The translations under genes and the position numbers were made by a program. From Acidimicrobiia bacterium (GTDB taxonomy: Bacteria; Actinomycetota; Acidimicrobiia; Spongiisociales; ZC4RG35): 64,000 bases of DNA. A model generated the notes under the pieces. It was not told the DNA's origin, ran no database searches, and worked only from the letters and a program-made list of their open reading frames with translations. Where the stretch lies: contig JAWOJB010000054.1 of the NCBI GenBank assembly GCA_046484325.1, positions 2,287 through 66,286 on the forward strand. Direction: 5' to 3'. Positions 1,759 through 57,704 of this stretch are shown here, in pieces. Numbering within the stretch: position 1 is the first letter of the stretch; each line of letters opens with the position of its first letter.

Positions 1759-1759
1759 G

Positions 1760-8746: not shown

Positions 8747-9358
8747 ATGCCCCGCATCAAGGCCGAGAGCATCGAGGCCCATAAGGACCTGGTGCGCCGC
8801 GAGCTGCTGGATGCGGCCCACGCCTTCCTCTGTGAGACCCGATCCGCCGACGTGAACCTGGCAGAGGTGGCGGCTCGGGCCGGGATCGGCCGTACGACCT
8901 TCTACGAGTATTTCCGGGACCGTGACGATCTGGTGGCGTCGCTGGTCGAGGAGATCCTGCCGGGGGTGGTCGATCGCCTGATCGCCTCGGTCCCCCCCGA
9001 GGGACGGTACGCCGAGAGGCTGCGGGCCATGGCCGTCGCCACCGTCGAATACCTCGCCGCCGACGAGGTGCTGGGGCTCATCCTCCACAGGGAGCTCCCC
9101 CGGCTGGGCCAGTCGGCCCAGGATCGGATCGCCCTCGCCCACGCCGATCTCACCCAGGAGATGGCAGCTCTCTACCGGAAGGGCGTCGAGGCGGGCGAGT
9201 TCGTGTCGCTCCCGCCCGCCCTGGCCGGTCGCTTCATCCACGAGGTCACCATGGCCGGCGGCAAGGCCGTGATCGCCTCGGCCGGGTCGCACGAGGCCGT
9301 GCGCGACGTCGCCGGCGTCACCGCCGACTTCCTGGTCCGCGGGCTCCGGTCCGCCTAG
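8747..9358 (+). CDS. TetR family transcriptional regulator
   Basis: ORF 8669..9358, start MPRIKAES (ATG 8747). HTH region NLAEVAARAGIGRTTFYEYFRDRDDL. Divergent from the acyl-CoA dehydrogenase gene. Confidence 0.85.
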   Translation: MPRIKAESIEAHKDLVRRELLDAAHAFLCETRSADVNLAEVAARAGIGRTTFYEYFRDRDDLVASLVEEILPGVVDRLIASVPPEGRYAERLRAMAVATVEYLAADEVLGLILHRELPRLGQSAQDRIALAHADLTQEMAALYRKGVEAGEFVSLPPALAGRFIHEVTMAGGKAVIASAGSHEAVRDVAGVTADFLVRGLRSA

Positions 9359-9412
9359 CCCGAATCGGGCGTCTGTTATCCCCGTTCCCCCCCGGTAATC
9401 TGACGAGCCCAC

Positions 9413-11518
9413 ATGGAGCCGATGCAGGACACCGTCGAGTTCGATATCGGCGCGCCGCCGGATGGGGACCCCGTCCGCCCGCTGGTGCTCAACCGCGAGC
9501 TGTCCTGGCTCGACTTCAACAGCCGGGTGCTGGCCCTCGCCGAGGATCCCGATCTGCCGATGCTCGAGCGGGCCCGGTTCCTGGCGATCTGGGGGTCGAA
9601 CCTCGACGAGTTCTTCATGGTGAGGGTGGCCGGGCTCAAGGAGCAGGTGGCCCACGGGGTTCGCGGCATGACCCCCGACGGGCGCACCGCGGTCGAGACG
9701 CTCGAGGGCATCCGCGACGAGGTGAGGTCGCAGGCAGATCGAGCCACCCGGGTGTTCCTCGACGATCTCGCCCCCGGCCTGGCCGCGGCGGGGGTGGCCT
9801 TCTCCGAGTACGCCAGCCTCGACGAGGGTGACCGGGCGTACATGGACCAGCAGTTCCGTGAGCTGGTCTTCCCGGTGCTCACCCCCCTCGCCGTCGACCC
9901 CGCCCACCCCTTCCCCTACATCTCCAACCTCTCCCTCAACCTGGCGGTCACCGTCCGCGACCCGGTGACCGAGGTCATCCGCTTCGCCCGGGTCAAGGTG
10001 CCGCCCAGCCTCCCCAGGTTCGTGGTGATGCCGGACGGTGAGCGGTTCGTGTCGGTCGAGCAGGTGATCGCCTTCCACATGGAGGAGCTCTTTCCCGGCA
10101 TGGAGATCCTCGGCCACGACGCCTTCCGGGTCACCCGCAACGCCGACCTCGAGATCGAGGAGGACCAGGCCGAGGATCTGCTCGCCGCCATCGAAACCGA
10201 GCTGTCACGGCGCAGATTCGGGCGGGCGGTGCGACTCGAGCTCTCCCCGGAGATGGCGCCGAGGGTCAGGGACCTGTTGGTGAGCGAGTTGGGCGTCACC
10301 GAGGACGACGTGTACGTGAACGAGGGGCCGCTCGGCATCGCCGGGCTCGCCGGATTGGCCGACCTCGACCGTTCCGACCTGCTGTGGGAGCCGTGGAGCT
10401 GGGTCACCCAGCCCCGGCTGGCACCGTCGATCGGCGAGCGGCCCGACATCTTCCGCGTGATCCGGGACGGCGACATCCTCGTCCACCACCCATACGACTC
10501 GTTCGCCACCTCGGTGGCCGAATTCATCGCCCAGGCGGCTCGCGATCCGCACGTGCTGGCGATCAAGCAGACGCTGTACCGCACGTCGAAGGACAGCGTG
10601 ATCATGTCGTCGCTGATGGAGGCGGCGAGCCTCGGCAAGCAGGTGGTGGCGCTGGTCGAGTTGAAGGCGCGGTTCGACGAGGAGCGCAACATCGAGTGGT
10701 CCCAGCGCCTGGAGGACGCCGGGGTGCACGTGGTGTACGGCGTGGTCGGGCTGAAGACCCACACGAAGATCGCCCTGGTCGTGCGACTCGAGGACGGCAT
10801 CATCGCGCGATACGCCCATGTGGGGACCGGCAACTACAACGACTCGACGGCCCGCATCTACGAGGACCTGGGCGTCTTCACGGCAGACCCGGACATCGGG
10901 GCCGATCTCAGCGATCTCTTCAACTACCTCACCGGGTACAGCCACCAGCGATCGTTCAGGAAGCTACTCGTGTCCCCGGCCGGAACCCGGCCTGCCCTCC
11001 TCCGGATGATCCGGGAGCAGGCGGCCCAATCCGGCGGCCGGATCTTCATGAAGATGAACTCGCTCGTCGACCGAGAGATGATCGAGACGCTGTACGAGGC
11101 GTCACAGGCGGGCGCCCAGGTCGACCTCTTCGTCCGCGGCATCTGCTGCCTGGTCCCGGGTGTCCCCGGGATGTCCGAGAACATCCGGGTCCGCTCAATC
11201 GTAGGCCGCTATCTCGAGCACTCCCGGGTCTACCGCTTCGGACCGCGCGGCGGCGAGCGGAGCTACTTCATCGGCTCGGCCGACCTCATGCCCCGCAACC
11301 TCGACCGTCGGGTCGAGGCGCTCGCCCCGGTGGAGGACCCGGCGCTCCAGTTCCGCATCGACGAGATCGCCGACGTGGTGCTCGCCGACGACGTGCGCAG
11401 CTGGGAGCTGGGGCCCGACGGCGAGTGGCGCAGGATCCCGACCGAGCGGGGGATCGAGGCCCACCTCACCCTGCGCGGTTTGGCCGAGGCCAGGGCTCAG
11501 GCCCGCACCGAGGCCTGA
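9413..11518 (+). CDS. ppk: Polyphosphate kinase 1
   Basis: 701-aa ORF. NRELSWLDFNSRVL N-terminus, KTHTKIALV phosphohistidine region, two PLD-like C-terminal domains. Confidence 0.95.
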   Translation: MEPMQDTVEFDIGAPPDGDPVRPLVLNRELSWLDFNSRVLALAEDPDLPMLERARFLAIWGSNLDEFFMVRVAGLKEQVAHGVRGMTPDGRTAVETLEGIRDEVRSQADRATRVFLDDLAPGLAAAGVAFSEYASLDEGDRAYMDQQFRELVFPVLTPLAVDPAHPFPYISNLSLNLAVTVRDPVTEVIRFARVKVPPSLPRFVVMPDGERFVSVEQVIAFHMEELFPGMEILGHDAFRVTRNADLEIEEDQAEDLLAAIETELSRRRFGRAVRLELSPEMAPRVRDLLVSELGVTEDDVYVNEGPLGIAGLAGLADLDRSDLLWEPWSWVTQPRLAPSIGERPDIFRVIRDGDILVHHPYDSFATSVAEFIAQAARDPHVLAIKQTLYRTSKDSVIMSSLMEAASLGKQVVALVELKARFDEERNIEWSQRLEDAGVHVVYGVVGLKTHTKIALVVRLEDGIIARYAHVGTGNYNDSTARIYEDLGVFTADPDIGADLSDLFNYLTGYSHQRSFRKLLVSPAGTRPALLRMIREQAAQSGGRIFMKMNSLVDREMIETLYEASQAGAQVDLFVRGICCLVPGVPGMSENIRVRSIVGRYLEHSRVYRFGPRGGERSYFIGSADLMPRNLDRRVEALAPVEDPALQFRIDEIADVVLADDVRSWELGPDGEWRRIPTERGIEAHLTLRGLAEARAQARTEA

Positions 11519-42895: not shown

Positions 42896-43849
42896 GTGAT
42901 GCTCCGAGTCATGGTCGCCGCCGTCCTGCCCTCCGTCCTCGCAGCTGCGTGCGGTGGCGGAGGCGGTTCCACGTTGACGATCTACACCTCGGTCACCCAG
43001 GACACGGTCGAATCGGTGGTCGCCGGGTTCTCCGAGGTCGAGCCCGGGGTGGAGGTGGTCGTGTTCCGGGCCCCCACCGGAGAGCTGGCCGCCCGCATCG
43101 CCGCCGAGCTCGCCTCCGGCGACCTTGGCGCCGACGTCCTCTGGCTCACCGAGCCGCTGTCGATGTACCGCTACCGGGAGCAGGGCCTGCTCCAGGTGTG
43201 GCAGCCTGCCGGGGCGGACGCGCTACCGCCCGAACTGGTCGAGGACGCCTTCTGGGGGACCCGACGGATGCACATGGTGGTGGTGACCGGATCCTCGCCA
43301 CCGGTCGAGGTCACCACCTGGGACGACGTCCGCAACCCCGATCTGCGCGTGGTTATCCCGGACCCGGGCCTCGCCGGCTCGGCCCTCGCCGTGCTCGGCT
43401 ACGTCGCCCTCACCCCCGGGTTGGGAATGGACTTCTACCGCGACCTCGCCGCCAACGGTGCTGGACAGGCCTCGGCTCCGGGCGACGTCGTCACCGCGGT
43501 CGCCGAGGGACGGTTCGACGCCGGGATCACGCTCGAGCAGCCCGCCCGGGTCGCCGCCGCCGCCGGATCCCCGCTCCGGATCGCCTGGCCTTCGCCGGGG
43601 GCGATCACGTTCGGCAGCCCGATCGCCGTGGTCGACGGCGCCGGTACGGCCGCCGAAGCCTTCGTCGAGTACGCGCTGTCCGAGGGGGGACAGACCCGGA
43701 TTGCCGCCACCGGATGGTTCCCGGCCCGGCGGGGGGTGGGCGGTCCCGAGCTGCCGCCCGGAGCAGACGAGGTGTTCCCCGACTGGGAGTCGCTGTCCGG
43801 CCAGGAGTCGGGCCTGCTCGACGAGTACCGGTCCATCTTCGACGGTTGA
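42896..43849 (+). CDS. ABC transporter substrate-binding lipoprotein, Fe(3+)/thiamine-type (AfuA/FbpA-like)
   Basis: Lipobox LAAACGG. TIYTSVTQDTVESVV...FRAPTGELAARI pattern typical of the COG1840 family. Confidence 0.75.
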   Translation: MMLRVMVAAVLPSVLAAACGGGGGSTLTIYTSVTQDTVESVVAGFSEVEPGVEVVVFRAPTGELAARIAAELASGDLGADVLWLTEPLSMYRYREQGLLQVWQPAGADALPPELVEDAFWGTRRMHMVVVTGSSPPVEVTTWDDVRNPDLRVVIPDPGLAGSALAVLGYVALTPGLGMDFYRDLAANGAGQASAPGDVVTAVAEGRFDAGITLEQPARVAAAAGSPLRIAWPSPGAITFGSPIAVVDGAGTAAEAFVEYALSEGGQTRIAATGWFPARRGVGGPELPPGADEVFPDWESLSGQESGLLDEYRSIFDG

Positions 43850-43850
43850 G

Positions 43851-45449
43851 GTGACCGCCCCAAGCCGTTTCCGGGCCGTGGCCGGGTGGATAGCGGTCGC
43901 CGCGTTCGTCGCGGTCCCGCTTCTGCGTCTCGCCGCCGGGGCGTCGGGCTCGGCGATCGGCGAGGTGGTCGCCGACCCCCGGACGGCGCAAGCGCTGGCC
44001 GGGAGCCTCCTGACATCGGCGCCCGCCGCCGTCCTCGCCACCTTCCTCGGCACCCTGTTCGCCTACGCCACCGAACGGATGGCCGTTCCCGGCCGGATGG
44101 TGCTCCGGTTGCTGGTGCTGGCACCGCTGATCATTCCCCCGTTCGTGTCGGCGATCTCGATCGAGCTGACCTACGGCCCGTTTGGGCTTCTCGACGCCCT
44201 CACCGGGGTGCGAGCCACCTGGATCGAGGGCCCGATCGGGGTGGCCCTGGTCATCGCCGTCAACGCGATGCCGCTCGCCTACCTCGCGGCGGTCGCCGCC
44301 CTGGCGTCCGGTTCGGAGGTCGAGGCCGAACGGGCTGGGCGGGTCTCGGGAGCCTCCGCCCTCCGGGTGTTCACGACCATCACACTGCCCATGCTCCGCC
44401 CGGCCGCCGCCGGTGGTGCCCTCCTCGCCTTCGTGTTCGGCCTCAACAGCTTCGGGGTGCCGATCGTCCTCGGCACGCCGGCGGGCTTCGACACCCTCAC
44501 GACCGAGGTGTACCGGGGGCTGGTGCGATCCGCCGACCCGGCCGCCTTCGACCGGGTGGTCGTGCTGGCCACGGTGCTCGCCGTGCTCGGACTCCTCACG
44601 GTGCTCCTGCTCGACCGGGCAGGCGGTACCGGCGTCCTCGCCGTTCGGGCCGGGCCGAGCGGCGGGGCCGTACCGGCGGCGCCCGCCAAGATGGCGGCGG
44701 CCGCCATCTGGGGGTGGTCGCTGCTGGTGGTGGTCATCCCGGTCGCCGGCCTCGTCGTGCGGTCGCTGGTGCCGGCCCCCGGCGTTCCGCCGGTCCCGGC
44801 CAACTGGTCGCTCGGCAACTTCGCCGGGCTGTTCGACACCCGGACCCTCTCGGCGCTCGGCCGCAGCACGGCGCTGGCGGCGATAGCAGCGGCGGGCGTG
44901 CTCGTGCTGGCGGGGATCGGGGTGGCCGAGGGTCGGGTGGGCCGCCGGGGGATCGGCATCGCCGGAGCCCTCGGCTATGCCGTGCCGGGGTCGGCGCTGG
45001 CGGTGGCCGTGTTGCTCGCCTATCGAGTGCCGCTCGCAGACACGCTGGCCATCATTCTCGTCGCCTACCTGGCCAAGTTCTGGGCTCTCGGGCACCGTTC
45101 GCTGGCCGGGGCCGCCGTCCGTCTCGGTGACGACCCCCTCCGAGCGGCCAGAGCATCGGGCGCCTCCGGATTCACCCTGATCCGGACGGTGGTCGTGCCG
45201 TCACTAGCCCCTGCCCTCGTCGCCGCCGGCCTGCTCGTGTTCCTGTTCGGACTCCACGAGTTGACGATGTCGAGCCTGCTCCGCGGCCCGGGGACCGATA
45301 CCCTCGCCGTCGTCGTGCTCGACGTACAGCAACTCGGCGACGCCGGCCGGACCTCGGCCCTCGCCGTCGTCCTCACCTTGCTCGTCGTGGCGGCCTCGGT
45401 GCCGCTGGTGGCCGCCCGTAGGTCGTGGCGCCGGGTGACGGGGACGTGA
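43851..45449 (+). CDS. Two-domain iron-type ABC transporter permease (FbpB/ThiP-like)
   Basis: 3' part of ORF 43458..45449 from GTG 43851. About 12 TM helices. Two EAA-like loops (EAERAGRVSGAS..., DPLRAARASGASG...). Confidence 0.8.
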   Translation: MTAPSRFRAVAGWIAVAAFVAVPLLRLAAGASGSAIGEVVADPRTAQALAGSLLTSAPAAVLATFLGTLFAYATERMAVPGRMVLRLLVLAPLIIPPFVSAISIELTYGPFGLLDALTGVRATWIEGPIGVALVIAVNAMPLAYLAAVAALASGSEVEAERAGRVSGASALRVFTTITLPMLRPAAAGGALLAFVFGLNSFGVPIVLGTPAGFDTLTTEVYRGLVRSADPAAFDRVVVLATVLAVLGLLTVLLLDRAGGTGVLAVRAGPSGGAVPAAPAKMAAAAIWGWSLLVVVIPVAGLVVRSLVPAPGVPPVPANWSLGNFAGLFDTRTLSALGRSTALAAIAAAGVLVLAGIGVAEGRVGRRGIGIAGALGYAVPGSALAVAVLLAYRVPLADTLAIILVAYLAKFWALGHRSLAGAAVRLGDDPLRAARASGASGFTLIRTVVVPSLAPALVAAGLLVFLFGLHELTMSSLLRGPGTDTLAVVVLDVQQLGDAGRTSALAVVLTLLVVAASVPLVAARRSWRRVTGT

Positions 45450-46498
45450 CGCCCGCCCTCCGGATGGCGGGGGTGAGGGCGGGATACGGACCGGTGGTCG
45501 TCCTCGACGACGTCGACCTCGAGGTGGCGCCCGCCGAGAGCGTGGTCATGCTCGGGCCGTCGGGATCCGGCAAGACCACGCTGCTCAACGTGGCATCCGG
45601 CTTCCTGGCGGTGGGCGCGGGCACGGTAGAGATCGGGGGCCGTGTGGTCGACGGGATGGGTGGGCGCCCGGTCGCACCCGAGGATCGCTCGATCGGCGTG
45701 GTGTTCCAGTCCCACGCCTTGTGGCCGCACCTGAGCGCCCTCGACACCGTCGCCTATCCGCTCCGGCGCGCCGGGCTCCCGGCTGCCGCCGCCCGGGCCC
45801 AGGCCGCCGAGTTGCTCGACCGGCTCGGCGTGGGTGACGCCCGTCACCGCCGCCCAGGTGAGCTCTCGGGCGGCCAGCAGCAGCGGGTGGGGGTCGCCCG
45901 GGCCCTCGCCCGTCGCCCCTCGTTGCTGCTGCTCGACGAGCCCACGGCCAATCTCGACGCCCCGCTGCGAGACGTGCTCCAGGACGAGCTCCGCATCCTG
46001 CGAGCCGAGGCCGGGGTGGCGGCGCTGTACGCCACCCACGATGCGGCAGAGGCATTGGCGGTGGCGGACCGCCTCGTCCTCATGAGGGATGGACGGATCG
46101 TGCAGGAGGGCTCGCCGGTCGACGTCTACGAGTGCCCGGTGGACGTGTGGGCAGCCCGGCTCACAGGCCCGGCCACGACCATGAAGGGCCGGGTCACCGG
46201 AGCGAGCCTGGTCATGGGCGAGATCACCGTGGCGCCCCGGGGGCTTCCGGATTCGGAGGGGGAGTGGGACGTGCTCGTCCGGCCCGAGTGGGCCGGGCTG
46301 GGCGGACCGCTGGCAGGCACGGTCGAGTCGGTCGCCTATCGGGGTGCCCACACCGACGTGCGCCTCGTCACCCCGGGGGGCGAGGTGCTCGTGCGGGCGC
46401 CGGGTCGGGCTCCCGCCCGACGGGGGGATCACCCGGGCTGGAGCCTCCATAGGGTGTGGCCGCTGGGCCGGGCGGCGACCCCGTTCCCCACGCCGTGA
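45446..46498 (+). CDS. ABC transporter ATP-binding protein (FbpC/PotA-like with C-terminal TOBE-like domain)
   Basis: GTGA overlap with the permease stop. [24 protein letters not shown]. Confidence 0.88.
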   Translation: MTPALRMAGVRAGYGPVVVLDDVDLEVAPAESVVMLGPSGSGKTTLLNVASGFLAVGAGTVEIGGRVVDGMGGRPVAPEDRSIGVVFQSHALWPHLSALDTVAYPLRRAGLPAAAARAQAAELLDRLGVGDARHRRPGELSGGQQQRVGVARALARRPSLLLLDEPTANLDAPLRDVLQDELRILRAEAGVAALYATHDAAEALAVADRLVLMRDGRIVQEGSPVDVYECPVDVWAARLTGPATTMKGRVTGASLVMGEITVAPRGLPDSEGEWDVLVRPEWAGLGGPLAGTVESVAYRGAHTDVRLVTPGGEVLVRAPGRAPARRGDHPGWSLHRVWPLGRAATPFPTP

Positions 46499-47042
46499 GC
46501 GCCGCCGCAGCCAGGACGTGCCAGACCCCGTGGCCCTGGAAGAGCGAGTCGGGCCGGCACCACGGCCATCCCGTTCGCGCCATCGTCCCGATCGCCGCAC
46601 CGAGGGCGGCGAAGCCCAGCACGGGGGCCGTCTCGGCGGTAGGCCGTGTGCGTACCTCACGGCCGATGGCGGCGGCGGCGAGCCCCACCGAGACCGGCTG
46701 GGCCGCCTTCGGGACGGCGGCGAACAGCGCCCCGATCGAGGCCAGCACCGCCCGGCGGCGGGACGGCGACCACCCGTCGGCGGCGATTGCCGCCAGCGAC
46801 CATGCCAGGGTCACGTCGTGGGCCCACACCGATCCCGGCCATCGTGGGCCGTGCGCCAGGAACGAGCCGACTCCGACCAGGGCGGTGAGCGTTGCGAACT
46901 CCCGCCGGCCCGGGCGCCGGCGGGCGATCCAGAGACCGGCCGGAACGAAGGCCAGGCTGGTGAGGGCATTGATGGGCTGGCTGAGCAGGCCGGTGCCGAT
47001 CCGCTCGCAGTCGGTGGATCCGAACCCGGGCTCCATGGCCAC
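46368..47042 (-). CDS. Seven-TM membrane protein, tentatively ceramidase-like (CREST superfamily)
   Basis: CERIGTGLLSQPINALTSLAF..., HGPRW..., WAHDVT..., GHGVWHVLAAA conserved His pattern. The 3' tail overlaps the convergent ABC ATPase gene by 131 nt. The family name is tentative. Confidence 0.5.
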   Translation of the reverse strand: MAMEPGFGSTDCERIGTGLLSQPINALTSLAFVPAGLWIARRRPGRREFATLTALVGVGSFLAHGPRWPGSVWAHDVTLAWSLAAIAADGWSPSRRRAVLASIGALFAAVPKAAQPVSVGLAAAAIGREVRTRPTAETAPVLGFAALGAAIGTMARTGWPWCRPDSLFQGHGVWHVLAAAALTAWGTGSPPGPAATPYGGSSPGDPPVGREPDPAPARAPRPPG

Positions 47043-47059: not shown

Positions 47060-47625
47060 TCAGGGCAGCAGGGCCGCCTCCGTGACCATGACGTTGGCGA
47101 GTTCCATGCCCCCGAGGGTCCGGGCGACCCGATGCATCGTGTCGGGCGCCGTCTCGGGCCAGGCCCGGCCGTGCTCCCGAACCCCGTGATGGCGGAAGGC
47201 CAGCAGGCGGAGCCGCACCCCCGGGTCGAGTCCGTCGACGAAGCCGGCGTACGCCGCCAGCTCCTCCTCGGAGTCGGTGAGCCCCTCGATGACGAGGAGC
47301 CGAACCTCGTGGAGCCTCCCGGCCCGGTGGAGGAAGCGAATCGAGTCGAGCACGGCAGAGTTGTCCTGGCCCGTGATCCGATGATGGGTCTCGCGGGTCA
47401 TCGCCTTGAGGTCGATCATGGTCCCGTCGAGCACCGGGACGAGGCGGCGCCACCGGGGACACCCAGGCTGCCGTTGGAATCGACCATGGTCGACAGACCC
47501 AGATCCTCCTTCACCGCCCCGAAGAGCGCCTCGAGGAAGTCGAGCCGCAAGGTGGGCTCGCCACTCGAGACGGTGACCTTCGAGGCGAAGGCGGCGTACG
47601 GGCGGATCTCGTCGGTGCGAGCCGG
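47060..47625 (-). pseudogene. Decayed radical SAM activating-enzyme gene (PflA-like): N-terminally truncated and frameshifted
   Basis: Frame A (47625 down to about 47450) reads TDEIRPYAAFASKVTVSSGEPTLRLDFLEALFGAVKEDLGLSTMVDSNGSLG. Frame B (ORF 47060..48064) continues VPVLDGTMIDLKAM...VRLLVIEGLTDSEEEL...LRLLAFRHHGVREHG. No CxxxCxxC motif in any frame upstream. Confidence 0.7.
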
Positions 47626-48408
47626 TCACTCCAGCAGATCGCCGGGCCGTCCGACCCGCCGATTGGTGAGGTCGAGCTGGTGCCTGGTGGACCGTTGGAG
47701 GTTGGCGAGCTGGCGATCGGTGAGACGGTCGCACACCCAGTCCCAGTGGAGCGAAACCGCATCGCCCGGCTCGAGGCCAGCGAGGAACCCGCGTCCGTCG
47801 ATGGCGACCCTGGCCACCTCGGCCCGAGGGGGTCCCAGGTGGAGCTCGCGCCCGCTCCAGAGCAACGGCCGGCTCTCGACCACCGCTTGATCGCCCACGA
47901 CGGACACCACTTCGCCCCAACGGATCCGGCAGCGATCGAGCACGTGCAGTGGATGCGGGCCACGATCCGAGCCGAGCAGGTCGACCCACGGGTAGATGCC
48001 GAACACGTGGAAGGCGTGGTTGGGGACCCCACCTGCCGGCACTCCCTCGGCCAGGCGTCCCCACTCCGGTCCGCTCCGATGCCGGAACCGATCGTCGAGC
48101 GACCTGCCGAAGTCGGACATGTCGATGCGGTCGAGCAGCTCGTTGCCGATCCAGTACGCCTCGACCACGCGGTAGTCGAGGGGGTCTCCGAGCCCGGTCT
48201 GCTCGGCGATGAACCGAACGTACGGCCAGGCGCCGGTGAACGCCGAGGCCAGCCCGAGCAGGCCCCCGTCGACCGTGCCCGACACCCCGTACTCGAACAG
48301 GGCGCGATGGTCGTCGGGCCCACAGGCGCCCAACTCGTTCGGGGGGTAGCCGTAGCGGATGTAGAGCGCCGCTCCGTCGAGCGTCGCCCTCGGCGCCGTG
48401 GTCGTCAC
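47626..48408 (-). CDS. Conserved hypothetical protein with a HypC-like C-terminal beta-barrel domain (I believe databases list this family as a DUF; unverified)
   Basis: 3' 261 codons of ORF 47626..48891. GTG 48408 overlaps the HypC-like stop (GTGA). The C-terminal CRIRWGEVVSVVGDQAVVES...LEPGDAVSLHWDWVCDRL parallels HypC MCLG...ARPGDSVLIHIGFPVQVL. Confidence 0.7.
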   Translation of the reverse strand: MTTTAPRATLDGAALYIRYGYPPNELGACGPDDHRALFEYGVSGTVDGGLLGLASAFTGAWPYVRFIAEQTGLGDPLDYRVVEAYWIGNELLDRIDMSDFGRSLDDRFRHRSGPEWGRLAEGVPAGGVPNHAFHVFGIYPWVDLLGSDRGPHPLHVLDRCRIRWGEVVSVVGDQAVVESRPLLWSGRELHLGPPRAEVARVAIDGRGFLAGLEPGDAVSLHWDWVCDRLTDRQLANLQRSTRHQLDLTNRRVGRPGDLLE

Positions 48409-48629
48409 GCGCCCATCTCCGCCCGCAGGGCCCGGGCCTCGGCGGCGTCGGCGGGGTCGAGCACCTGTACGGGGAAGCCGATGTGGATCAGCACCGAGTC
48501 GCCGGGGCGAGCCTCGGGAACGTAGATCAGGGCGACGGTCTCGGTGCGGCCTTCGCGATCGACCTCGGCCATGGGGACACCGTCCTCGTCCCACACCCTC
48601 AGGACGGTGGCGAGGGCTCCGAGGCACAT
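48405..48629 (-). CDS. HypC/HybG/HupF family chaperone-like protein
   Basis: 74 aa. N-terminal MCLG signature and PGDSVLIHIGF core. Confidence 0.85.
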   Translation of the reverse strand: MCLGALATVLRVWDEDGVPMAEVDREGRTETVALIYVPEARPGDSVLIHIGFPVQVLDPADAAEARALRAEMGA

Positions 48630-48743: not shown

Positions 48744-49133
48744 GTGTTGCCCCTCTTCGTCTACGGCACGCTGCGTCCGGGGGAGAGGGCGTGGCGCTGG
48801 TACCTCGGGCGGCTGGCCGTCCGCCACCGGCCCGGGCTCCTCGACGGCTACGGGCTGTACGGGCGAACCCGTCCTTTTCCGTTCGCAGCACCTGCCCCCG
48901 GCCTGGCGGTGGTCGGCGAACTCGTCTGGGTCGAGCCGGGCGCCGGCGAGCCGGTGCTCCGGCGCCTCGACGAGTACGAGGGCGCCGTCGGGCCGGATCC
49001 GCTCTACCTCCGCGAGCAGGCGGAGATCATCACCGACGAGGGGCCGCGCAACGCCTGGGTGTGGGTGGCCGGTACCCGACTCCGGCCCGATCCCGGCGAG
49101 CTGATCGTCTCGGGCGACTGGCTCGGTCGCTAG
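48744..49133 (+). CDS. Gamma-glutamylcyclotransferase (AIG2/GGCT-like) family protein
   Basis: 3' part of ORF 48483..49133. GTG 48744 gives VLPLFVYGTLRPGE, the family N-terminal signature. LDEYEG is present. Confidence 0.75.
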   Translation: MLPLFVYGTLRPGERAWRWYLGRLAVRHRPGLLDGYGLYGRTRPFPFAAPAPGLAVVGELVWVEPGAGEPVLRRLDEYEGAVGPDPLYLREQAEIITDEGPRNAWVWVAGTRLRPDPGELIVSGDWLGR

Positions 49134-49429
49134 AAGGGTGGCTCGGCCAGCCCGACCACCTTCACCCGGATCATGCCGGGGCCGGCGTCGTCGAGCTTGG
49201 GCCCGACCTGGGCTCGCCCCCGGCTGCCATCGTTCAGCTCGACGATGGTCGTGAGGCTCTTCGCCTCGAGACAGGAGCCGGACGACACCGTGAGGGTGCC
49301 CGACCAGGCGGGCACGTCGGGATCCGTCACGGAGAGCTCGCCCTTCCCGACGTCGAGCAGCCAGCCGAGGCCGGCGTCGAGAACCCTCACCACCCCTACG
49401 TAGGTCGAGGTGGGGGCCGTCGTGGTCAT
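49130..49429 (-). CDS. Small beta-rich hypothetical protein, co-transcribed with the upstream 1018-aa gene
   Basis: 99-aa ORF starting 10 nt after the upstream stop. No motif recognised. Confidence 0.55.
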   Translation of the reverse strand: MTTTAPTSTYVGVVRVLDAGLGWLLDVGKGELSVTDPDVPAWSGTLTVSSGSCLEAKSLTTIVELNDGSRGRAQVGPKLDDAGPGMIRVKVVGLAEPPF

Positions 49430-49438
49430 GGCTCGAGG

Positions 49439-52400
49439 TTACCCGGGTGGCGGACCGGCGATGGCCAGCAGCCTGCCGTCGACGGTGGCGATGTACACGG
49501 CCCCGTCCACGACCGCCGGGGGGCCGGCGGGCCGGGCGTCGAGGGAGAACCGCCAGCGCTCCTCACCCGACCCAGCGTCGATGGCGACGAGCTCGCCATC
49601 TCCCGTGCCCAGGTAGATGGTCCCGTCGGCGACCACGGGGGCGGTGACGGGGTTGAACGGCTCCACGGTCGGCGGGAACACCCAGGGTCGCTCGCCGGTG
49701 ACGATGTCGATGGCGAGGAGGCGGGGCCCTTCGATCTGGTACACGAGTCCATCGGCGACGGCGATCGGGAGGTTCAGGACGAACCCGCCGGTGCCGAGCT
49801 GGGGAACGCCGTCGGAGGGGGGAGCGCCGCACGAGCCGACCGTGAACTTCATGATCACCCCGTTGGCCATCGGCGCGAGCACCAGGCCTTCGGCGACGGT
49901 TGGCCCGTCGGCGGGGCGTCCCCGCAGGTCGACCGGGGCGGGGCACCGTGGCTCGCCGGTGGCGGCGTCGATGACGTGGAGCAGCCCGGCGGCATCGATC
50001 GCGTAGACGATGCCGTCGGCATAGGCGGGTGACAGCTCGAAGGCGGCCCCGGGCTCGGTGCCCTCTGCGGGGTACCGCCAAACCTCCTGGACCGGGGGGG
50101 CGTAGCCGATGACGAGGCCGCCGTCGGTGGCCACGACGATGAGGTCGTCGTCGGTTACGGCCGGGGTTCCCCGTGCCCGCCGACCGTCGGGAAGGGTGAC
50201 GCGTTCGGGGATCAGGCCGGTCCGGTCGGCGTTGCGGACGTAGAGGAAGCCATCGCTGGTGGTGAATGCCACGAGTGGCTCGGTGGCGCCTTCCGTCTCC
50301 TGGAACGAGACGGCCGGCAGCCCGTCGAGCCGTCCTTCGACCGGAACCGTCTCGAACACCGAGCCGTTGGCCTGGCTGATGAAGATCAGGGCCTCGGTGG
50401 TGGAGCTTGTGACGTAGAGGAGCTGGCCGCGGGCCACCGGGCCGCTGGGATTCACACCTCCGATGTCGGTTCGCCAGTAGATCCCCTCCGGCGCGGACAC
50501 GCCGCCGGACATCAAGCCGGCGCGGGCCGGGCCACCGCGGTCGAACGCCTCGCCGAAGAGACCCTGATCGGGGGGAGCGACGATCCGGTCCTCGAGCCGG
50601 GTCGTCGTCGTCGTGGCCATGGTGGTGGTCGTCGCCGCCGCCTCGGGAGGGGCGTCGGCCTGGAGCAGCCCCACCCCCAGCGCGGTGGCCGCCGAGAGGG
50701 CCACGACACCGACCGCGGCTGCGACCACGGCGGGCCACCGCCGGCGGGGAACCGGGCGGCGGCGCACCAGCCCGGCCGCCCGACGCTGGGCCGGGCTCAG
50801 CACCTCGGCAACCCCGGCGAGGCCGGCGGCATGGAGCGCGTCGTCGATCCGGGCCTGCAGCTCGGAACCGGCGGCCTCGTCGGGCTCGGGCAGATCGAGG
50901 GCGTTGCGAATCGCCGGCTCTACCCGCCACGTCTCCCACCAGTCCTCCGGCATCCGGGCGCCCGTCGCCCTCACCATCCGGCCGATGGGCCGTGCCGCAG
51001 GTTGGTCCCACAATCCCGCCGCCTCGGCGGCATGGGCGGCGAGCACCGGGTTGCCGAGCATGACGGCCAGGGCGGCCGCCTGCTCTCCGAGCTCGGCATC
51101 ACCCTCTCGCCGAGACCGCTCGGTCATCAGGTCGACGGCGGCTTCGTACCACTTGGCCTGCAGGAGGGCGTCAGACAGGTCCTCCGCTTCGCGCTGCGGC
51201 CACGGGGTGTCGTCGTCGAGAAGCATGAGCCGGAGCGCACCGGCGTGCATACGCCAACGCCAGCCGTCGGCGCCGGCAGGGCACAGAGCCAGGGCCTGTT
51301 CGACCTCGTTCCGGGCCTCTTCCAGACGGCCGGCCGCGAGGAGGGCTCTGGCCCGCAGCGTTCGTACGACGTTCTCCCACGCCGGGAGGTGAGCCTGGAC
51401 CAGCTCGAGCGCCCGATCTGCTGCCTCGATTGCCTCGTCGGCACGCCCGTAGAGGGTGCCGCCCTCGGTGAGTGCCAGCCATCCGATGAACTGAGGGGCG
51501 GGGGCATCGACGCGCCGGCCCTGCTCGATCGCCTCGTGGGCGTGAGTCTTGGCGTCGGCGACGAGGCCTGTGCGGAAGGCTGCCCGGGCCCAGTACGCAT
51601 CCTTGTCGGCGCGACCGACGTCACCCTCGAGCTCGAGGGCGACGTCCCGCAGGCGGGCGAATGCCGTCTCCGCCGCGGTCGCCTCGCCGCGGTCGAGCAG
51701 GACCCAGGCCCGGTTCATACGGCCGAAGTACTGCTGGATGGCGGTGCCATGGGCATCGAGCAGCAGTTCTCCACGCTCCTGGGCGGCGTCGGCCTCCGTC
51801 GGGAAGCCGATCCGGCTCAAGGATCGGCCCTGCAGTGTCAGGATCGATCCGAGCTTGGCGGTGAGCCCCCCGTTGGCAGCCCGCTCCGCGGCCAGGGCCG
51901 CCATCACCTCGGATCGCTGCGGCTGCTGGAGGTCGTCGGCGATGGCCGCCGCGAATCCGAGGGCATCGACCTGGGGCTCCCCGTCGAGTCGCCGGATCGC
52001 TATCTCCACGTCTCCGGCGGCGTCGGCGCTCCGCCCCTCCGCCCGGAGCCGTCGAGCCCTGACCAGCCGGAGCCGTCCCTCCACCTCGGGCGCCAGACCG
52101 CCCCGCTCGTCGTGGGCGGTGAGAGCGAGCCCGGCCGCCTCGACGTCACCGGCATCGGCGGCGGCCACCAGCGAGTCGAGGGCATCGTCGGTCCGTCCCG
52201 CCTCGAGCAGGGCGCGTCCGATCTCACCCGGTGGGGCCCCGGCGGCGGCAAGGTATCGAGCCCAGCGACCGGCGACTGCGCTGTGACGGGTGGGGGATGT
52301 CTCCGCCGTGGACGTCGGGCGGAACCCCGAGGCGGTGTCGACAAGGAGGCCTTCGCCGACCAGGCTCTCGACCTGTTCGACGATCGTGGCCTCGTCGACG

Positions 52401-52495
52401 CCGAGCGCAGCGGAAGCCTCGTCTGCTCTCACTGGGCGACCCGCCACGATGGCGAGCGCGACGAGATCCGTCACCTGTGACCGGTCCGTGCTCAT
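49439..52495 (-). CDS. Large single-pass membrane protein: N-terminal winged-helix-like domain, ~500-aa TPR-like helical region, TM helix, Thr linker and an extracytoplasmic PQQ/BamB-like beta-propeller
   Basis: N-terminus LVALAIVAGRPVRADEASAALGVDEATIVEQVESLVGEGLLV. Alanine/leucine-rich helical repeats. TM WPAVVAAAVGVVALSAATALGVGLL. ATTTTMATTTTT linker. Propeller blades (LLYVTSSTTEAL, IVYAIDAAGLLHVIDAATGEP, IYLGTGDGELVAIDAGSGEERW, VYIATVDGRLLAI). Confidence 0.8.
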   Translation of the reverse strand: MSTDRSQVTDLVALAIVAGRPVRADEASAALGVDEATIVEQVESLVGEGLLVDTASGFRPTSTAETSPTRHSAVAGRWARYLAAAGAPPGEIGRALLEAGRTDDALDSLVAAADAGDVEAAGLALTAHDERGGLAPEVEGRLRLVRARRLRAEGRSADAAGDVEIAIRRLDGEPQVDALGFAAAIADDLQQPQRSEVMAALAAERAANGGLTAKLGSILTLQGRSLSRIGFPTEADAAQERGELLLDAHGTAIQQYFGRMNRAWVLLDRGEATAAETAFARLRDVALELEGDVGRADKDAYWARAAFRTGLVADAKTHAHEAIEQGRRVDAPAPQFIGWLALTEGGTLYGRADEAIEAADRALELVQAHLPAWENVVRTLRARALLAAGRLEEARNEVEQALALCPAGADGWRWRMHAGALRLMLLDDDTPWPQREAEDLSDALLQAKWYEAAVDLMTERSRREGDAELGEQAAALAVMLGNPVLAAHAAEAAGLWDQPAARPIGRMVRATGARMPEDWWETWRVEPAIRNALDLPEPDEAAGSELQARIDDALHAAGLAGVAEVLSPAQRRAAGLVRRRPVPRRRWPAVVAAAVGVVALSAATALGVGLLQADAPPEAAATTTTMATTTTTRLEDRIVAPPDQGLFGEAFDRGGPARAGLMSGGVSAPEGIYWRTDIGGVNPSGPVARGQLLYVTSSTTEALIFISQANGSVFETVPVEGRLDGLPAVSFQETEGATEPLVAFTTSDGFLYVRNADRTGLIPERVTLPDGRRARGTPAVTDDDLIVVATDGGLVIGYAPPVQEVWRYPAEGTEPGAAFELSPAYADGIVYAIDAAGLLHVIDAATGEPRCPAPVDLRGRPADGPTVAEGLVLAPMANGVIMKFTVGSCGAPPSDGVPQLGTGGFVLNLPIAVADGLVYQIEGPRLLAIDIVTGERPWVFPPTVEPFNPVTAPVVADGTIYLGTGDGELVAIDAGSGEERWRFSLDARPAGPPAVVDGAVYIATVDGRLLAIAGPPPG

Positions 52496-52599
52496 TGCCT
52501 CCCTCCTGGAGCCTGCATGATGGTCGGAACGAATCGCGAATGGCGCCCAGAGCGGCCATGTGATGCGGACTAACGTCGGTGGCCGACACGGGAGGTGTG

Positions 52600-53025
52600 A
52601 TGGATCCGATCGAGGCCTTGCTCCAGTCGAGTCTCATGCGGGCACTCGACGACCGTCAGCTGAACTCGCTCGCCAGCGTGGCCCGGCGGCGTCGGTTCGA
52701 CCCGGGCGAGCATCTCATCCGGGAAGGGACTGCCGGAGCGCTGGCGATGTTCGTCGTGCTCGAGGGGAAGGTCGGGGTGAAGAAGGGGGAGCAGCTCATC
52801 GCCGAGTTCGGACCAGGCGCCCATGTGGGCGAGGTGGCGGTGCTCGGACCCGAGGATCAGCGACGGACCGCCGACGTGGTGGCGATCGAACCGACGACGG
52901 TGCTCCAGTTGACGAAGTGGGACATCTTCCCCGTGCTCAAGACGAATCCCGACGCCGCCCTCGCGGTGATCTCGGACCTGGCGAAGCGGCTCTCGGACGC
53001 CACCGGGCGCATGGCGGCCGACTGA
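52600..53025 (+). CDS. Single-domain cyclic nucleotide-binding protein
   Basis: ORF 52579..53025. GGGAGG precedes ATG 52600. FGPGAHVGEVAVL...RTADVVA matches the cNMP-binding phosphate-binding cassette. Confidence 0.85.
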   Translation: MDPIEALLQSSLMRALDDRQLNSLASVARRRRFDPGEHLIREGTAGALAMFVVLEGKVGVKKGEQLIAEFGPGAHVGEVAVLGPEDQRRTADVVAIEPTTVLQLTKWDIFPVLKTNPDAALAVISDLAKRLSDATGRMAAD

Positions 53026-53067
53026 GGTGCGCGATGCGCGGTGAGCCATGCGCATTGCGCTGTGCGC
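53026..53067. repeat. Tandem heptamer array, 6 units of NNTGCGC
   Basis: ggtgcgc gatgcgc ggtgagc catgcgc attgcgc tgtgcgc. First base directly follows the TGA stop at 53023-53025. Confidence 0.9.
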
Positions 53068-53078
53068 AGTCAGGTGTG

Positions 53079-53097
53079 TCCCCCACGAAGTGGGGGA
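53079..53097 (+). terminator. GC-rich stem-loop, candidate intrinsic terminator lacking a U-tract
   Basis: TCCCCCAC gaa GTGGGGGA (8-bp stem, 3-nt loop) downstream of the first cNMP gene and the heptamer array. Confidence 0.4.
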
Positions 53098-53224
53098 AGG
53101 GGCCCCCCCGCAGCGGTAGCTGCAGGGTAGGGGGGGCGGCGAATCTCCCGATTGAGGAGAGTGCCCACACACGCTCGGACCCCGATCGGTACCATCGCCG
53201 GACGGCACCGACGGGAGGGACGCG

Positions 53225-53647
53225 ATGAGTCTGTTACGGAAGCGGGATCAGAAGGTCGAGGTCCTGCAACGTGTCCCCCTGTTCGCCGGTCTCAGCAAGA
53301 AGGATCTGGGCCAGTTGGCCCGCCATCTGGACGAGGTGGATCTCAAGGAGGGGACCGTACTCACCCGCGAGGGTGAACTCGGCCGGGAGGCGATGATCCT
53401 CCTGAGCGGGACTGCCGTGGTCCGCCGCAAAGGGCGCAAACTGGCCGAGCTCGGCCCTGGCGACGTGATCGGAGAGCTGAGCCTGCTCGCCGAGATCCCC
53501 CGCACCGCATCCGTGGTGGCGACGAGCGAACTTACCGTGGCGCTCATGACGGCGTCGGACTTTGGCGCGGTCGTCGACGAGAACCCACAGGTCGCCGTCC
53601 GGATGCTGCGGACCGTCGCCCACCGGTTCGCCGAGTTGAGCGGGTAG
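53225..53647 (+). CDS. Single-domain cyclic nucleotide-binding protein (second copy)
   Basis: VPLFAGLSKKDLGQLARHL...LGPGDVIGELSLL...PRTASVVA. Confidence 0.88.
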   Translation: MSLLRKRDQKVEVLQRVPLFAGLSKKDLGQLARHLDEVDLKEGTVLTREGELGREAMILLSGTAVVRRKGRKLAELGPGDVIGELSLLAEIPRTASVVATSELTVALMTASDFGAVVDENPQVAVRMLRTVAHRFAELSG

Positions 53648-53662
53648 CCGCCCCGAGATCGC

Positions 53663-54064
53663 TCAGTCAGGCCCCCGCCGGACGTCGGGCAGCACCTCGG
53701 AACGCAGGACGATCTCGTGACGGTAGGTGCGGTGGACCTCCTGCACTCGCCGGGCCGCCTCCCGTTCCGCCGTCTGGAGCCGTTCCCGCAGGCGCTGGAT
53801 CTGTCCCTCGAGCTTCCGCACATGTTCGGTGAGCTCGAGGACCCGCCGGACTCCTTCGAGGTTGAGCCCCTGCTCGGTGAGCTCCTGGATGAGGGCGAGC
53901 CTCTCGATGTCGGCCGGGGAGTACCGGCGGGTGCCGCCCGGCGTCCGGTACGGCTCGATGAGTCCCTTCCTCTCGTAGATGCGGAGGGTCTGAGGGTGCA
54001 TGCCCGCCAGCTCGGCGGCCACCGAGATCACGAAGACGGCCCGGGAATGCTCTCGACCTGCCAT
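53663..54064 (-). CDS. hspR: MerR-family heat shock repressor HspR
   Basis: FVISVAAELAGMHPQTLRIYERKGLIEPYRTPGGTRRYS. Last gene of the dnaK operon. Confidence 0.9.
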   Translation of the reverse strand: MAGREHSRAVFVISVAAELAGMHPQTLRIYERKGLIEPYRTPGGTRRYSPADIERLALIQELTEQGLNLEGVRRVLELTEHVRKLEGQIQRLRERLQTAEREAARRVQEVHRTYRHEIVLRSEVLPDVRRGPD

Positions 54065-54065
54065 G

Positions 54066-55187
54066 TCATACCCTCAGATGGGCGCGTACGTCCTCGGTCT
54101 CGTACGTCGCCAGTTGCTCGAGCAGCTTCTTCTCGTCCCGACTCAGCTTGCGGGGCACGGCCACCTCGACTTTGACCAGGAGGTCGCCTCCGCGGCCCCG
54201 GTCGGGCTGCACCCCCCGTCCCTTCACCCGGAACGTCTTGCCGCTCGGCGTGCCCGGAGGAACTTTGACGGTCACCGATCCGTCGAGCGTCGGGACGTGG
54301 ACCTTGGATCCGAGGGTCGCCTCGGTGAACGTGATCGGGACGGTGATCACGAGGTCGTTGCCCTTTCTGGTGAAGATCGGATGCCTCGCCACCGACACCC
54401 TTACGAGCAGATCCCCCGGTCGACCGCCGTTCCGGCCCGGCCCCCCGTGGCCTGCGAGCCGGATGGTGGAGCCGTCCTCCACGCCGGCGGGGACCCGGAC
54501 CTTGATCGTGCGCGTCCGCATCTCGGTGCCACGCCCGCGGCAGTTGCTGCACGGGTGGTCGATCTGACGGCCGGATCCGCCGCACTGGGGACAAGGCTGG
54601 GCGAAGGAGAAGAACCCCTGGTTCTGGGCGACCGTCCCCGAGCCCCGGCACGTGGGGCACGTCTGAGGTTGGGTACCCGGCTCGGCCCCGTTCCCGCCAC
54701 AGCGGCTGCAGGGTGCCTCGCCCCGGACCGAGACCTGGGTGGTGGCGCCCCGCACGGCGTCCTCGAACGACAGGTGGAGCTCGGCGGCGGTGTCGGGACC
54801 ACGCTGGGGTCCACCGCGACGCGATCCACCGAACCCGAAGAGGTCGCCGAGGCCGCCGAAACCACCGAGCAGGTCCGAGAGGTCTTCGACCCGCACCTGC
54901 TGGCCGCCACCGGTGAAGGGCCCGCCGCCCGGGAAGCCGGTGAACCCGCCGGACTCCACCAGCCGGCGCACCTGGTCGTACTCCTTGCGATGCTCGGGGT
55001 TGGAGAGGGTGGCGTAGGCCTCGGAGATCTGCTTGAACCGCTCCTCGGCGGCGGGGTCGCCCTGGTTGGCGTCCGGGTGGTACTGCTGGGCGAGCTTGCG
55101 GTAGGCGCGTTTGATCTCGTCGGCCGACGCACCGCTCGAGACCCCCAACTCCTGGTAGAAGTCCTTGTCCACCCAGTCGCGGTTCAT
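54066..55187 (-). CDS. dnaJ: Molecular chaperone DnaJ
   Basis: J domain with HPD (QQYHPDAN), G/F region and four CxxCxGxG zinc-finger repeats. Confidence 0.96.
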   Translation of the reverse strand: MNRDWVDKDFYQELGVSSGASADEIKRAYRKLAQQYHPDANQGDPAAEERFKQISEAYATLSNPEHRKEYDQVRRLVESGGFTGFPGGGPFTGGGQQVRVEDLSDLLGGFGGLGDLFGFGGSRRGGPQRGPDTAAELHLSFEDAVRGATTQVSVRGEAPCSRCGGNGAEPGTQPQTCPTCRGSGTVAQNQGFFSFAQPCPQCGGSGRQIDHPCSNCRGRGTEMRTRTIKVRVPAGVEDGSTIRLAGHGGPGRNGGRPGDLLVRVSVARHPIFTRKGNDLVITVPITFTEATLGSKVHVPTLDGSVTVKVPPGTPSGKTFRVKGRGVQPDRGRGGDLLVKVEVAVPRKLSRDEKKLLEQLATYETEDVRAHLRV

Positions 55188-55789
55188 GTGACCTCGGCTC
55201 GATCGGCGACCTCGACGAGGGCGGCACGGACCACCCGGCCGCGAAGTCGGTACCCCCGCCGGAGCTCCTTGGACACGATGAGCCCGCCGGTACCGTTCGC
55301 CGTCGAGCTCACGGCCTCGTGGATCTCGGGATCGAATGGCTCATCCCAGGTGGGCACCACCTCGAGCCCCTCGCCGGCGAGGATGTCGAGCAACAGCTGG
55401 TGGGTGCCGCGGACCCCGGCCAGCAGCTTCTGCTCGGTGTCCGACCGGGCCTCGATCGCCAGCGCGGCGTCGAGGCTGTCGAGCACCGGCAGCAGGGCCG
55501 CCACCACCCTCTCGGCCGCCCGTTCCACGGTCTGCTGTTGCTCGCGAAGGGCCCGCTTGCGGAAGTTGTCGAAATCTGCGGCGACCCGACGGAGGTCCTC
55601 GAGGTAGGCGGAGGCCTCGGCCCTGGCAGCGGCCACCTCCCGGAGGAGCAGGTCGATGGCCGCGTCGGGCTCACCGGGCAGCTCGAGCCCGAGGGATGCC
55701 GCATCCGGGGTCTCCTCGGGCCCGTGGGCCTCTGCCACCGGCAGGACCTCGCCCTCCACCACGTCGGACACCTGCGGCTCGTCGGACAT
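55184..55789 (-). CDS. grpE: Nucleotide exchange factor GrpE
   Basis: ORF 55184..55951. ATG 55789 (MSDEPQV) is chosen because the upstream part is the heptamer array. The start could also be GTG 55798. Confidence 0.9.
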   Translation of the reverse strand: MSDEPQVSDVVEGEVLPVAEAHGPEETPDAASLGLELPGEPDAAIDLLLREVAAARAEASAYLEDLRRVAADFDNFRKRALREQQQTVERAAERVVAALLPVLDSLDAALAIEARSDTEQKLLAGVRGTHQLLLDILAGEGLEVVPTWDEPFDPEIHEAVSSTANGTGGLIVSKELRRGYRLRGRVVRAALVEVADRAEVT

Positions 55790-55812
55790 GGACGTCACCT
55801 CGAAACCCGGCA

Positions 55813-55868
55813 GGTGCGACGTGCGACGTGGGATGTGGGACGTGGGACGTTGGACGTTGGACGTGAGA
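55813..55868. repeat. Tandem heptamer array, 8 units, with stepwise unit drift
   Basis: ggtgcga cgtgcga cgtggga tgtggga cgtggga cgttgga cgttgga cgtgaga. Lies between the dnaK stop (55878-55880) and the grpE start. Confidence 0.9.
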
Positions 55869-55877
55869 GGCGGCAGT

Positions 55878-57704
<1,827 letters not shown>

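Follow-up and report, generated by a model that had tools for sequence, protein, structure and literature searches.

HypC is a small chaperone with an oligonucleotide/oligosaccharide-binding (OB) fold that shuttles Fe(CN)2CO, bound to its N-terminal Cys, between HypD and the precursor of the large subunit. In E. coli HypC this Cys and a motif His are the two residues required to bind the iron unit. HypC is not known to have a role besides the maturation of [NiFe]-hydrogenases. In Rhizobium and Cupriavidus the HypC paralogues HupF/HoxL and the scaffold proteins HupK/HoxV serve as extra maturation factors of O2-tolerant hydrogenases, and in E. coli the Ni-responsive regulator NikR is encoded beside the nickel ATP-binding cassette (ABC) importer that supplies the hydrogenases. 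Mycobacterium smegmatis needs two NifU/Rieske proteins, HhyE and HucE, to oxidise H2, as reported by Islam et al. 2019 (PMC6883350). The subject of the present analysis is a pair of overlapping genes, hypC and a member of the DUF6390 family, found in a stretch of 64,000 nucleotides (hereafter the window) from an Acidimicrobiia bacterium (GenBank assembly GCA_046484325.1, contig JAWOJB010000054.1, positions 2,287 to 66,286 of the forward strand). The original prediction, made by a model from the letters of the window, had presented the pair as an orphan; for the window our results are mostly corrective, in that the “orphan” appears to be a displaced hydrogenase accessory module, with no evidence of a new cofactor pathway. 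The pair is probably a detached part of a [NiFe]-hydrogenase maturation gene set, and the enzyme that it serves would be encoded at another site in the genome. Its features are as follows:

48405 to 48629, minus strand: hypC, a HypC/HybG/HupF-family chaperone of 74 amino acids that begins with Met-Cys and has the motif PGDSVLIHIGF
47626 to 48408, minus strand: DUF6390 family gene, 260 amino acids, GTG start (Pfam PF19927, 308 bits)
47935 to 48408, minus strand: N-terminal all-helical domain of the DUF6390 protein, residues 1-158, helical in both AlphaFold2 models
47626 to 47934, minus strand: C-terminal HypC-like OB domain and helix of the DUF6390 protein, residues 159-260, assigned by hhalign and Foldseek

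The 74-amino-acid open reading frame (ORF) scored 58.3 bits against the Pfam model HupF_HypC (PF01455), well above the gathering cutoff of 28.5, and 47.0 bits against the narrower TIGR00074, just under the cutoff of 48. Its sequence begins MCLGALATV, placing a Cys right after the initiator Met, and both this Met-Cys start and the conserved His of PGDSVLIHIGF align with a HypC profile built from 47 sequences. With its Met-Cys, a PGDxVLxHxGF motif and the right size, the ORF resembles the HypC/HybG/HupF proteins (PF01455; 2Z1C), and by its sequence it is a genuine, ordinary member of the HypC family in an unusual location: it adjoins neither hypD, hypE or hypF nor a hydrogenase, whereas the orthologous pairs in other genomes do. 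The TGA stop of hypC overlaps the GTG start of the 260-amino-acid ORF within the tetranucleotide GTGA (...GGC GCG TGA / GTG ACG ACC), and in both ORFs, within a sequence of 70% GC, the GC content varies over the codon positions as it does in real genes. Scans around the pair found no Rfam match, tRNA or promoter-like site, and the only terminator-like matches were two overlapping ones at 48859-48874 on the plus strand.

The second protein matches PF19927 over its full length (model positions 4-242 of 244, above the gathering score) and carries all the invariant columns of the family alignment. DUF6390 is catalogued in Pfam as an uncharacterised family with more than 5,300 homologues, or 1,683 clusters at 50% identity; its name is not mentioned in the literature that was searched, and the Hhy and Huc cluster papers among it give no account of the family. 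In the AlphaFold2 model of the 260-amino-acid protein, which has a predicted local distance difference test (pLDDT) score of 82 and a predicted template modelling (pTM) score of 0.83, the N-terminal part is all-helical and leads into a beta-barrel, with one more helix at the end of the chain. The C-terminal domain contains C160 (within DRCRIRWG), the motif PGDAVSLH221W and C226. When 66 DUF6390 C-terminal domains were compared with 47 HypC sequences using hhalign, the probability of homology was 94.5% (E = 7e-8), and the extended alignment placed Cys160 on the N-terminal Cys of HypC and His221 on the His of PGDxVLxHxGF. The top PDB match of the AlphaFold2 model in Foldseek was HypC of T. kodakarensis (2z1c_B; E = 0.011, probability 1.00, TM-score on target 0.64), and the next matches were generic OB folds. 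The Pfam HypC model gave nothing at E <= 1 against this domain, so that it is fairly called cryptic and the homology is remote.

Judged by profile alignment and predicted structure, the C-terminal third of DUF6390 is thus a real but remote homologue of HypC. The two have in common an OB fold followed by a helix, a Cys-led first strand and a PGDxV..H motif, and they differ in that the barrel of DUF6390 has a 13-residue insertion between the aligned Cys and His, is missed by the Pfam HypC model and has its Cys in an internal position, behind a helical domain of 158 residues. The ligand Cys of HypC stands at the mature N-terminus; the aligned Cys here is residue 160, and residues 159-260 are therefore HypC-like and not a HypC. 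The original prediction had named the HypC hallmarks of the 74-amino-acid ORF (MCLG and PGDSVLIHIGF), the GTGA overlap and a second, cryptic HypC-like domain with a Cys and PGDxV..H, and all of these are borne out by the data above; a lack of structural similarity between the C-terminus of the 260-amino-acid protein and HypC, which it had named as one of two conditions that would jointly speak against it, does not hold.

The N-terminal domain is marked by the motifs YxYPPNxLGxCGP (C29), VVEAYWxGN and HxFHVFxxYPW (H131 and H134). Modelled alone it reached a pLDDT of 69, below that of the whole protein; Foldseek found no PDB fold match for it (best E = 5), and a profile search of PDB sequences returned noise only. 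Across 66 species-level DUF6390 sequences, conservation is 100% for C29, H131, C160, H221 and C226 and 86% for H134, and in the family alignment that includes the window protein all six residues are invariant. The five fully conserved Cys and His residues are kept even in members that are ~40% identical, from M. intracellulare and Sulfobacillus, with the exception that C226 is replaced by Ser in the latter.

The genomic context of DUF6390 was surveyed in 80 loci from species-representative genomes, in which stop-to-stop ORFs were clustered and the cluster representatives annotated with Pfam; synteny was counted in the 46 loci that had at least 9 kb on both sides of the gene. A [NiFe]-hydrogenase large subunit is encoded within 10 kb of DUF6390 in 38 of these 46 loci, mostly in group-1h-type clusters, HypC lies within 1.5 kb in 34/46 and an ABC importer permease within 6 kb in 31/46. 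These clusters are taken to be group 1h on the basis of the genes they contain and of two motifs in the large subunit, SRICGICGDNH and DPCLPCGVH. The dominant gene order is HhyS-HhyL-NifU/Rieske (HhyE)-DUF5947-DUF6084, a gene for a protein of 460-530 amino acids with no Pfam match, HycI-type protease-HypA-HypC-DUF6390 and then the ABC importer, which is either co-directional or convergent. A group-3b-like enzyme is found instead in 8/80 loci (L006, L014, L033, L065, L066, L071, L073 and L077). Two plasmids carry other types: in M. intracellulare the DUF6390 gene lies in a Huc-like cluster and overlaps the stop codon of hypD, and in Sulfobacillus the order is hypF-hypC-(hypothetical)-hypD-hypE-tatA-DUF6390, adjoining a cytochrome-b-linked group 1 hydrogenase. 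The gene order at L074 is hypF-hypC-hypD-hypE-DUF6390-DUF6390. From this synteny, hypC-DUF6390 is the normal tail of a hydrogenase/hyp operon, and in related genomes the pair is the standard terminal element of [NiFe]-hydrogenase/hyp operons of group-1h-type, Huc-like, group-3b-like and, in Sulfobacillus, cytochrome-b-linked group 1 enzymes. Split loci also occur: L001, L017 and L020 have hypC, DUF6390 and an importer with no large subunit within 10 kb, and L020 in addition has hypA and hypB, which implies that a hydrogenase is encoded elsewhere in that genome.

The survey also yielded observations on the surrounding genes. The tandem DUF6390 paralogues of L074, a metagenome-assembled genome of the Propionibacteriales, lie at 9008-9733 and 10001-10762 and are ~48% and 53% identical to the query. 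The group-1h-type operons carry further conserved genes, encoding DUF5947, DUF6084, the Pfam-less protein of 460-530 amino acids and DUF6893 (for example L086 1072-3769 and L018 3193-4773), and we found no discussion of these four in a hydrogenase context in the literature searched.

The closest analogues of DUF6390 are HupF/HoxL, HupK/HoxV and HhyE/HucE, and its architecture differs from all of them. HupF/HoxL and HupK/HoxV are likewise extra HypC-related or scaffold proteins encoded beside the core HypA-F in the hydrogenase operons of aerobes, and HupF/HoxL, like DUF6390, provides a second HypC-like module next to the canonical one. DUF6390 combines a helical with an OB domain, unlike HupK/HoxV, with which a sequence relationship was neither tested nor seen. 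It also differs from HupF/HoxL and HupK/HoxV in its distribution: it is found in Actinomycetota, Chloroflexota and Bacillota, where it accompanies hydrogenase clusters that are group-1h-type, Huc-like or group-3b-like and, in one case, a group 1 cluster linked to cytochrome b. HhyE and HucE (PMC6883350) are conserved accessory genes of atmospheric-H2 hydrogenase operons, the same operons in which DUF6390 occurs, and their roles were unknown until genetics was applied; their folds are unrelated to that of DUF6390, and their role has been shown genetically, whereas DUF6390 is known here from sequence and a model. Soil Actinomycetota and Chloroflexota can live on H2 from the atmosphere by means of group-1h-type and Huc-type hydrogenases, and the maturation and metal supply of these O2-insensitive enzymes is only partly known, DUF6390 being one of several conserved operon genes without a function. 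Its HypC-derived domain with ligand residues, its position between importers and hyp genes and its recurrent fusions to DNA-binding domains lead to hypotheses that can be tested.

The window departs from this arrangement. Searches with tblastn using E. coli HypA, HypB, HypD, HypE, HypF, HycE, HycG and HycI found no hydrogenase or hypA, hypB, hypD, hypE or hypF gene in the window, and searches with representative subunits and accessory proteins of group-1h and group-3b type, drawn from the related loci, matched hypC only. Contigs of the same metagenome that reach ~10 kb past the left end and ~9 kb past the right end contain no hydrogenase or hyp genes either. The genes for the large and small subunits, the NifU/Rieske protein and the maturation protease of the group-1h (Hhy) cluster are absent from the window, which retains hypC, DUF6390 and a convergent ABC importer (42911-46498) and lacks the upstream structural and accessory genes. 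In the place of the hydrogenase operon are a divergent GGACT-family gene, an ORF of 99 amino acids and a PQQ-repeat protein of 1018 amino acids:

49130 to 52495, minus strand, and 48744 to 49133, plus strand: block replacing the hydrogenase operon (L085, 1-2260)
42911 to 43849, plus strand: substrate-binding protein of the ABC importer, Fe3+/2-aminoethylphosphonate (AEP)-type cluster (locus ORF cluster c12)
43878 to 45449, plus strand: permease of the ABC importer, with two fused BPD_transp_1 domains (cluster c17; Pfam on the representative, gene call from L081)
45446 to 46498, plus strand: ATPase of the ABC importer with a TOBE_2 tail, convergent with hypC-DUF6390 (cluster c2; gene call and Pfam from L081)

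The sister lineage represented by L085 has the same orphan layout, with a DUF6390 protein 70% identical and a HypC 74% identical to those of the window. Between the two lineages the ratio of nonsynonymous to synonymous substitution rates (dN/dS) is 0.24 for DUF6390 and 0.27 for hypC, compared with 0.39-0.42 for the flanking genes. The hypC-DUF6390 pair is under purifying selection and, since its dN/dS is below that of the flanking genes and its layout is common to L085, it has been maintained by selection while detached. With regard to the block upstream of hypC, the 1018-amino-acid protein with C-terminal PQQ/beta-propeller repeats, the 99-amino-acid ORF, which belongs to no family, and the GGACT-family gene are conserved in both orphan lineages.

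Because the pair ends [NiFe]-hydrogenase operons beside a metal-type importer in related genomes, we read the window as detached hydrogenase maturation and not as a new cofactor pathway. The upstream structural and accessory genes of an ancestral operon would no longer be adjacent in the window lineage, and the remaining trio of hypC, DUF6390 and convergent ABC importer, kept under selection, probably serves a hydrogenase encoded elsewhere. For DUF6390 itself, the five near-universal Cys and His residues, the novel helical domain, the fusions to PadR and MarR domains (see below) and the variety of adjoining importers suggest a role in handling or sensing metal, and our best reading is that it would be a Cys/His metal-binding adaptor linking metal import to HypC and HypD. 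We infer that Cys29, His131, Cys160, His221 and Cys226 would form a putative metal site common to both domains, and that the protein would pass Ni, Fe or an intermediate of the cofactor from the dedicated importer to its presumed partners, the HypC/HypD machinery.

Several observations weigh against this interpretation. The Cys of the OB domain is internal, so that HypC-like chemistry cannot simply be assumed. The family matches of the importer, in NCBIfam and among PDB sequences, are all distant ones of Fe3+, AEP or polyamine type and far under cutoff, and no substrate can be read from them: the substrate-binding protein belongs to the Pfam families SBP_bac_11/1/6/8 (found for the c12 representative and likewise for the L081 gene), has PhnS2 as its best NCBIfam match, far under the cutoff, and has Fe3+-binding proteins of the HitA/FbpA types as its nearest structures at E ~1e-4 only, while the permease has a PhnU2-like match under the NCBIfam cutoff and the ATPase is PhnT2/PotA/FbpC-like. 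Recurrent fusions of DUF6390 to DNA-binding domains are no less consistent with a sensor than with a chaperone. Lastly, ~83 kb surrounding the pair are without a hydrogenase or hypDEF gene, as would also be expected if the pair were a leftover, the hydrogenase having been lost and hypC-DUF6390 now working for the ABC importer next to them, for instance by handling metal in the cytoplasm outside H2 metabolism. This explanation, which we regard as improbable, draws on the importer link persisting at loci where no hydrogenase is present (the window, L001, L017, L020, L028, L085 and L087) and on the several unrelated families of importer (Fbp/AEP-like, FecCD, Nik/Opp-type and EamA) that adjoin DUF6390 across lineages. 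However, 83 kb represents a small fraction of a genome, the hypA and hypB genes of the split locus L020 point to a hydrogenase elsewhere in that case, HypC is not known to have a role outside [NiFe]-hydrogenase maturation, and among the fully flanked loci the link to a hydrogenase is slightly stronger than that to an importer.

The importers and the DNA-binding fusions bear on a further question, namely whether DUF6390 hands on metal or reports on it. An Fbp/AEP-like ABC importer adjoins DUF6390 in the window and in many other loci, a FecCD-type importer does so in Arthrobacter and its relatives, and a Nik/Opp-type SBP_bac_5 system and, at group-3b-type loci, EamA permeases are found elsewhere. 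In a 15-member cluster (34 index blocks) DUF6390 is fused to a PadR domain, and the gene for the fusion opens an operon that also encodes an SBP_bac_5 importer of Nik/Opp type and lies immediately upstream of a group-1h-type hydrogenase. A 17-member cluster (41 index blocks) consists of DUF6390-MarR fusions encoded directly after hypC at the end of a Huc-like operon (loci L095-L097; gene at 8001-9236 in L095), and fusions of helix-turn-helix (HTH) domains of the XRE type to DUF6390 have two members. The HTH-fused proteins retain C29, H131, C160, H221 and C226. The layout of the PadR operon is reminiscent of NikR, in that a protein with conserved Cys and His residues heads an importer operon directly upstream of a hydrogenase; on the other hand, DUF6390 has no homology to NikR and the window copy is without a DNA-binding domain.

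These fusions support the view that DUF6390 is mainly a sensor and not a chaperone, that is, a Cys/His ligand-binding module that reports either the supply of Ni or Fe or the condition of the Fe(CN)2CO/HypC pool and so controls the adjacent importer and hydrogenase genes, while the stand-alone copies would titrate HypC or work together with a distinct DNA-binding protein. The fusions are recurrent and do not look like artefacts, the five Cys and His residues are kept in the fused forms, and at the Pseudonocardiales loci L029, L036 and L041 DUF6390 is paired with a winged-helix regulator and no hydrogenase is within reach. We nevertheless consider a predominantly sensory role, although a serious competitor to the adaptor reading, less likely than not, given that most DUF6390 members, the window copy included, have no DNA-binding domain, that no regulator gene adjoins the pair in the window, and that the tight coupling to hypC or hypD, with stop/start overlaps in the window and in M. 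intracellulare, is typical of assembly factors. A combination of the two roles may be entertained, tentatively, in which DUF6390 would be a new class of sensor-adaptor built on the HypC fold, whose Cys2His2(+Cys) interdomain site reads Ni, Fe or Fe(CN)2CO status and couples importers to hydrogenase maturation. If so, the PadR, MarR and XRE fusions would extend this coupling to transcription in aerobic atmospheric-H2 oxidisers, and in lineages of the window type DUF6390 would be a free-standing module that works with HypC and an importer.

Some details of the fusions should also be recorded. The PadR, MarR and XRE fusions always lie beside hydrogenase genes, and the PadR-DUF6390 operon also encodes a 394-amino-acid protein of unknown function (L098-L100; gene at 1852-2961 in L098). 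Singleton fusions of HypC (P0169), a HypF fragment (P0254) and EamA (P0204 and P0267) to DUF6390 are treated here as potential artefacts of gene calling or of assembly; in P0169 the conserved positions are garbled.

On the other side of the pair lies the remnant of a radical SAM gene, of which we located copies in two further contigs:

47060 to 47625, minus strand: frameshifted pseudogene that corresponds to the 3' two-thirds of a glycyl-radical-enzyme activase of YjjW type (TIGR04041)
L081, 3683 to 4248: copy of the remnant
L082, 6078 to 6643: copy of the remnant

The remnant matches TIGR04041 at model positions 100-274 of 276 only, with 159 bits against a cutoff of 250, and because the match starts at position 100 it is without the N-terminal part bearing the CX3CX2C motif. 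No such N-terminal part was found upstream of the remnant, where the DUF6390 gene ends 1 nt away, and the 5' third is missing from every copy; the window and L082 share one 1-nt deletion and L081 has a different one. Over 13.7 kb the window and L081 are separated by 45 mismatches, 14 of which lie in the 566-nt remnant (P = 2e-9), as do both of the indels; the 1,005 nt of hypC and DUF6390 show one synonymous change only. The remnant is confined to the same strain's own contigs and is absent from the 80 related genome loci and from the L085 lineage. Its indels vary between strain populations of one organism, which resembles a pseudogene in active decay.

A link between the radical SAM gene and the pair was consequently rejected: the remnant is strain-specific, 5'-truncated and frameshifted, is missing at all other DUF6390 loci, and represents decay unrelated to the pair and no part of its system. 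The original prediction was right that the 64-kb window has no hydrogenase or hypD, hypE or hypF gene and that the gene downstream is the wreck of a radical SAM activase. Its suggestion that HypC folds form the basis of an uncharacterised module, which probably acts on a metal centre, stands, whereas the proposed independence from hydrogenases is contradicted by synteny, as is the tie to the radical SAM neighbour. A metallocofactor maturation module on HypC-like folds that is independent of hydrogenases and possibly works with a radical SAM enzyme is suggested by the local picture only, in which no hydrogenase is nearby and the remnant is adjacent; we consider it very improbable indeed, given that the radical SAM gene is a truncated and frameshifted pseudogene of this strain only and that the conserved neighbours in the surveyed loci are hydrogenase, hyp and importer genes, with no intact radical SAM gene among them.

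Other features of the region touch on the pair less directly. The 3' end of the ABC ATPase gene (plus strand, to 46498) overlaps the gene for a membrane protein of 222 amino acids (minus strand, 46368-47036) convergently by ~130 nt; the overlap at 46368-46498 may be genuine or one of the tails may be over-called, and the 222-amino-acid protein has a faint ceramidase-like match. At 52579-57704, two tandem proteins with cyclic nucleotide-binding (cNMP-binding) domains adjoin an hspR(MerR)-dnaJ-grpE-dnaK heat-shock operon. A respiratory block extends over L089 1-10014, beyond the left end of the window, and window positions 1-2140, and encodes nitrate-reductase-like beta and gamma subunits, COX2, COX1 and a 746-amino-acid cytochrome b fused to ferredoxin and cytochrome c domains, followed by cytochrome c and SCO1/SenC copper chaperones. 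From the content of this block, the organism looks aerobic, with a branched respiratory chain.

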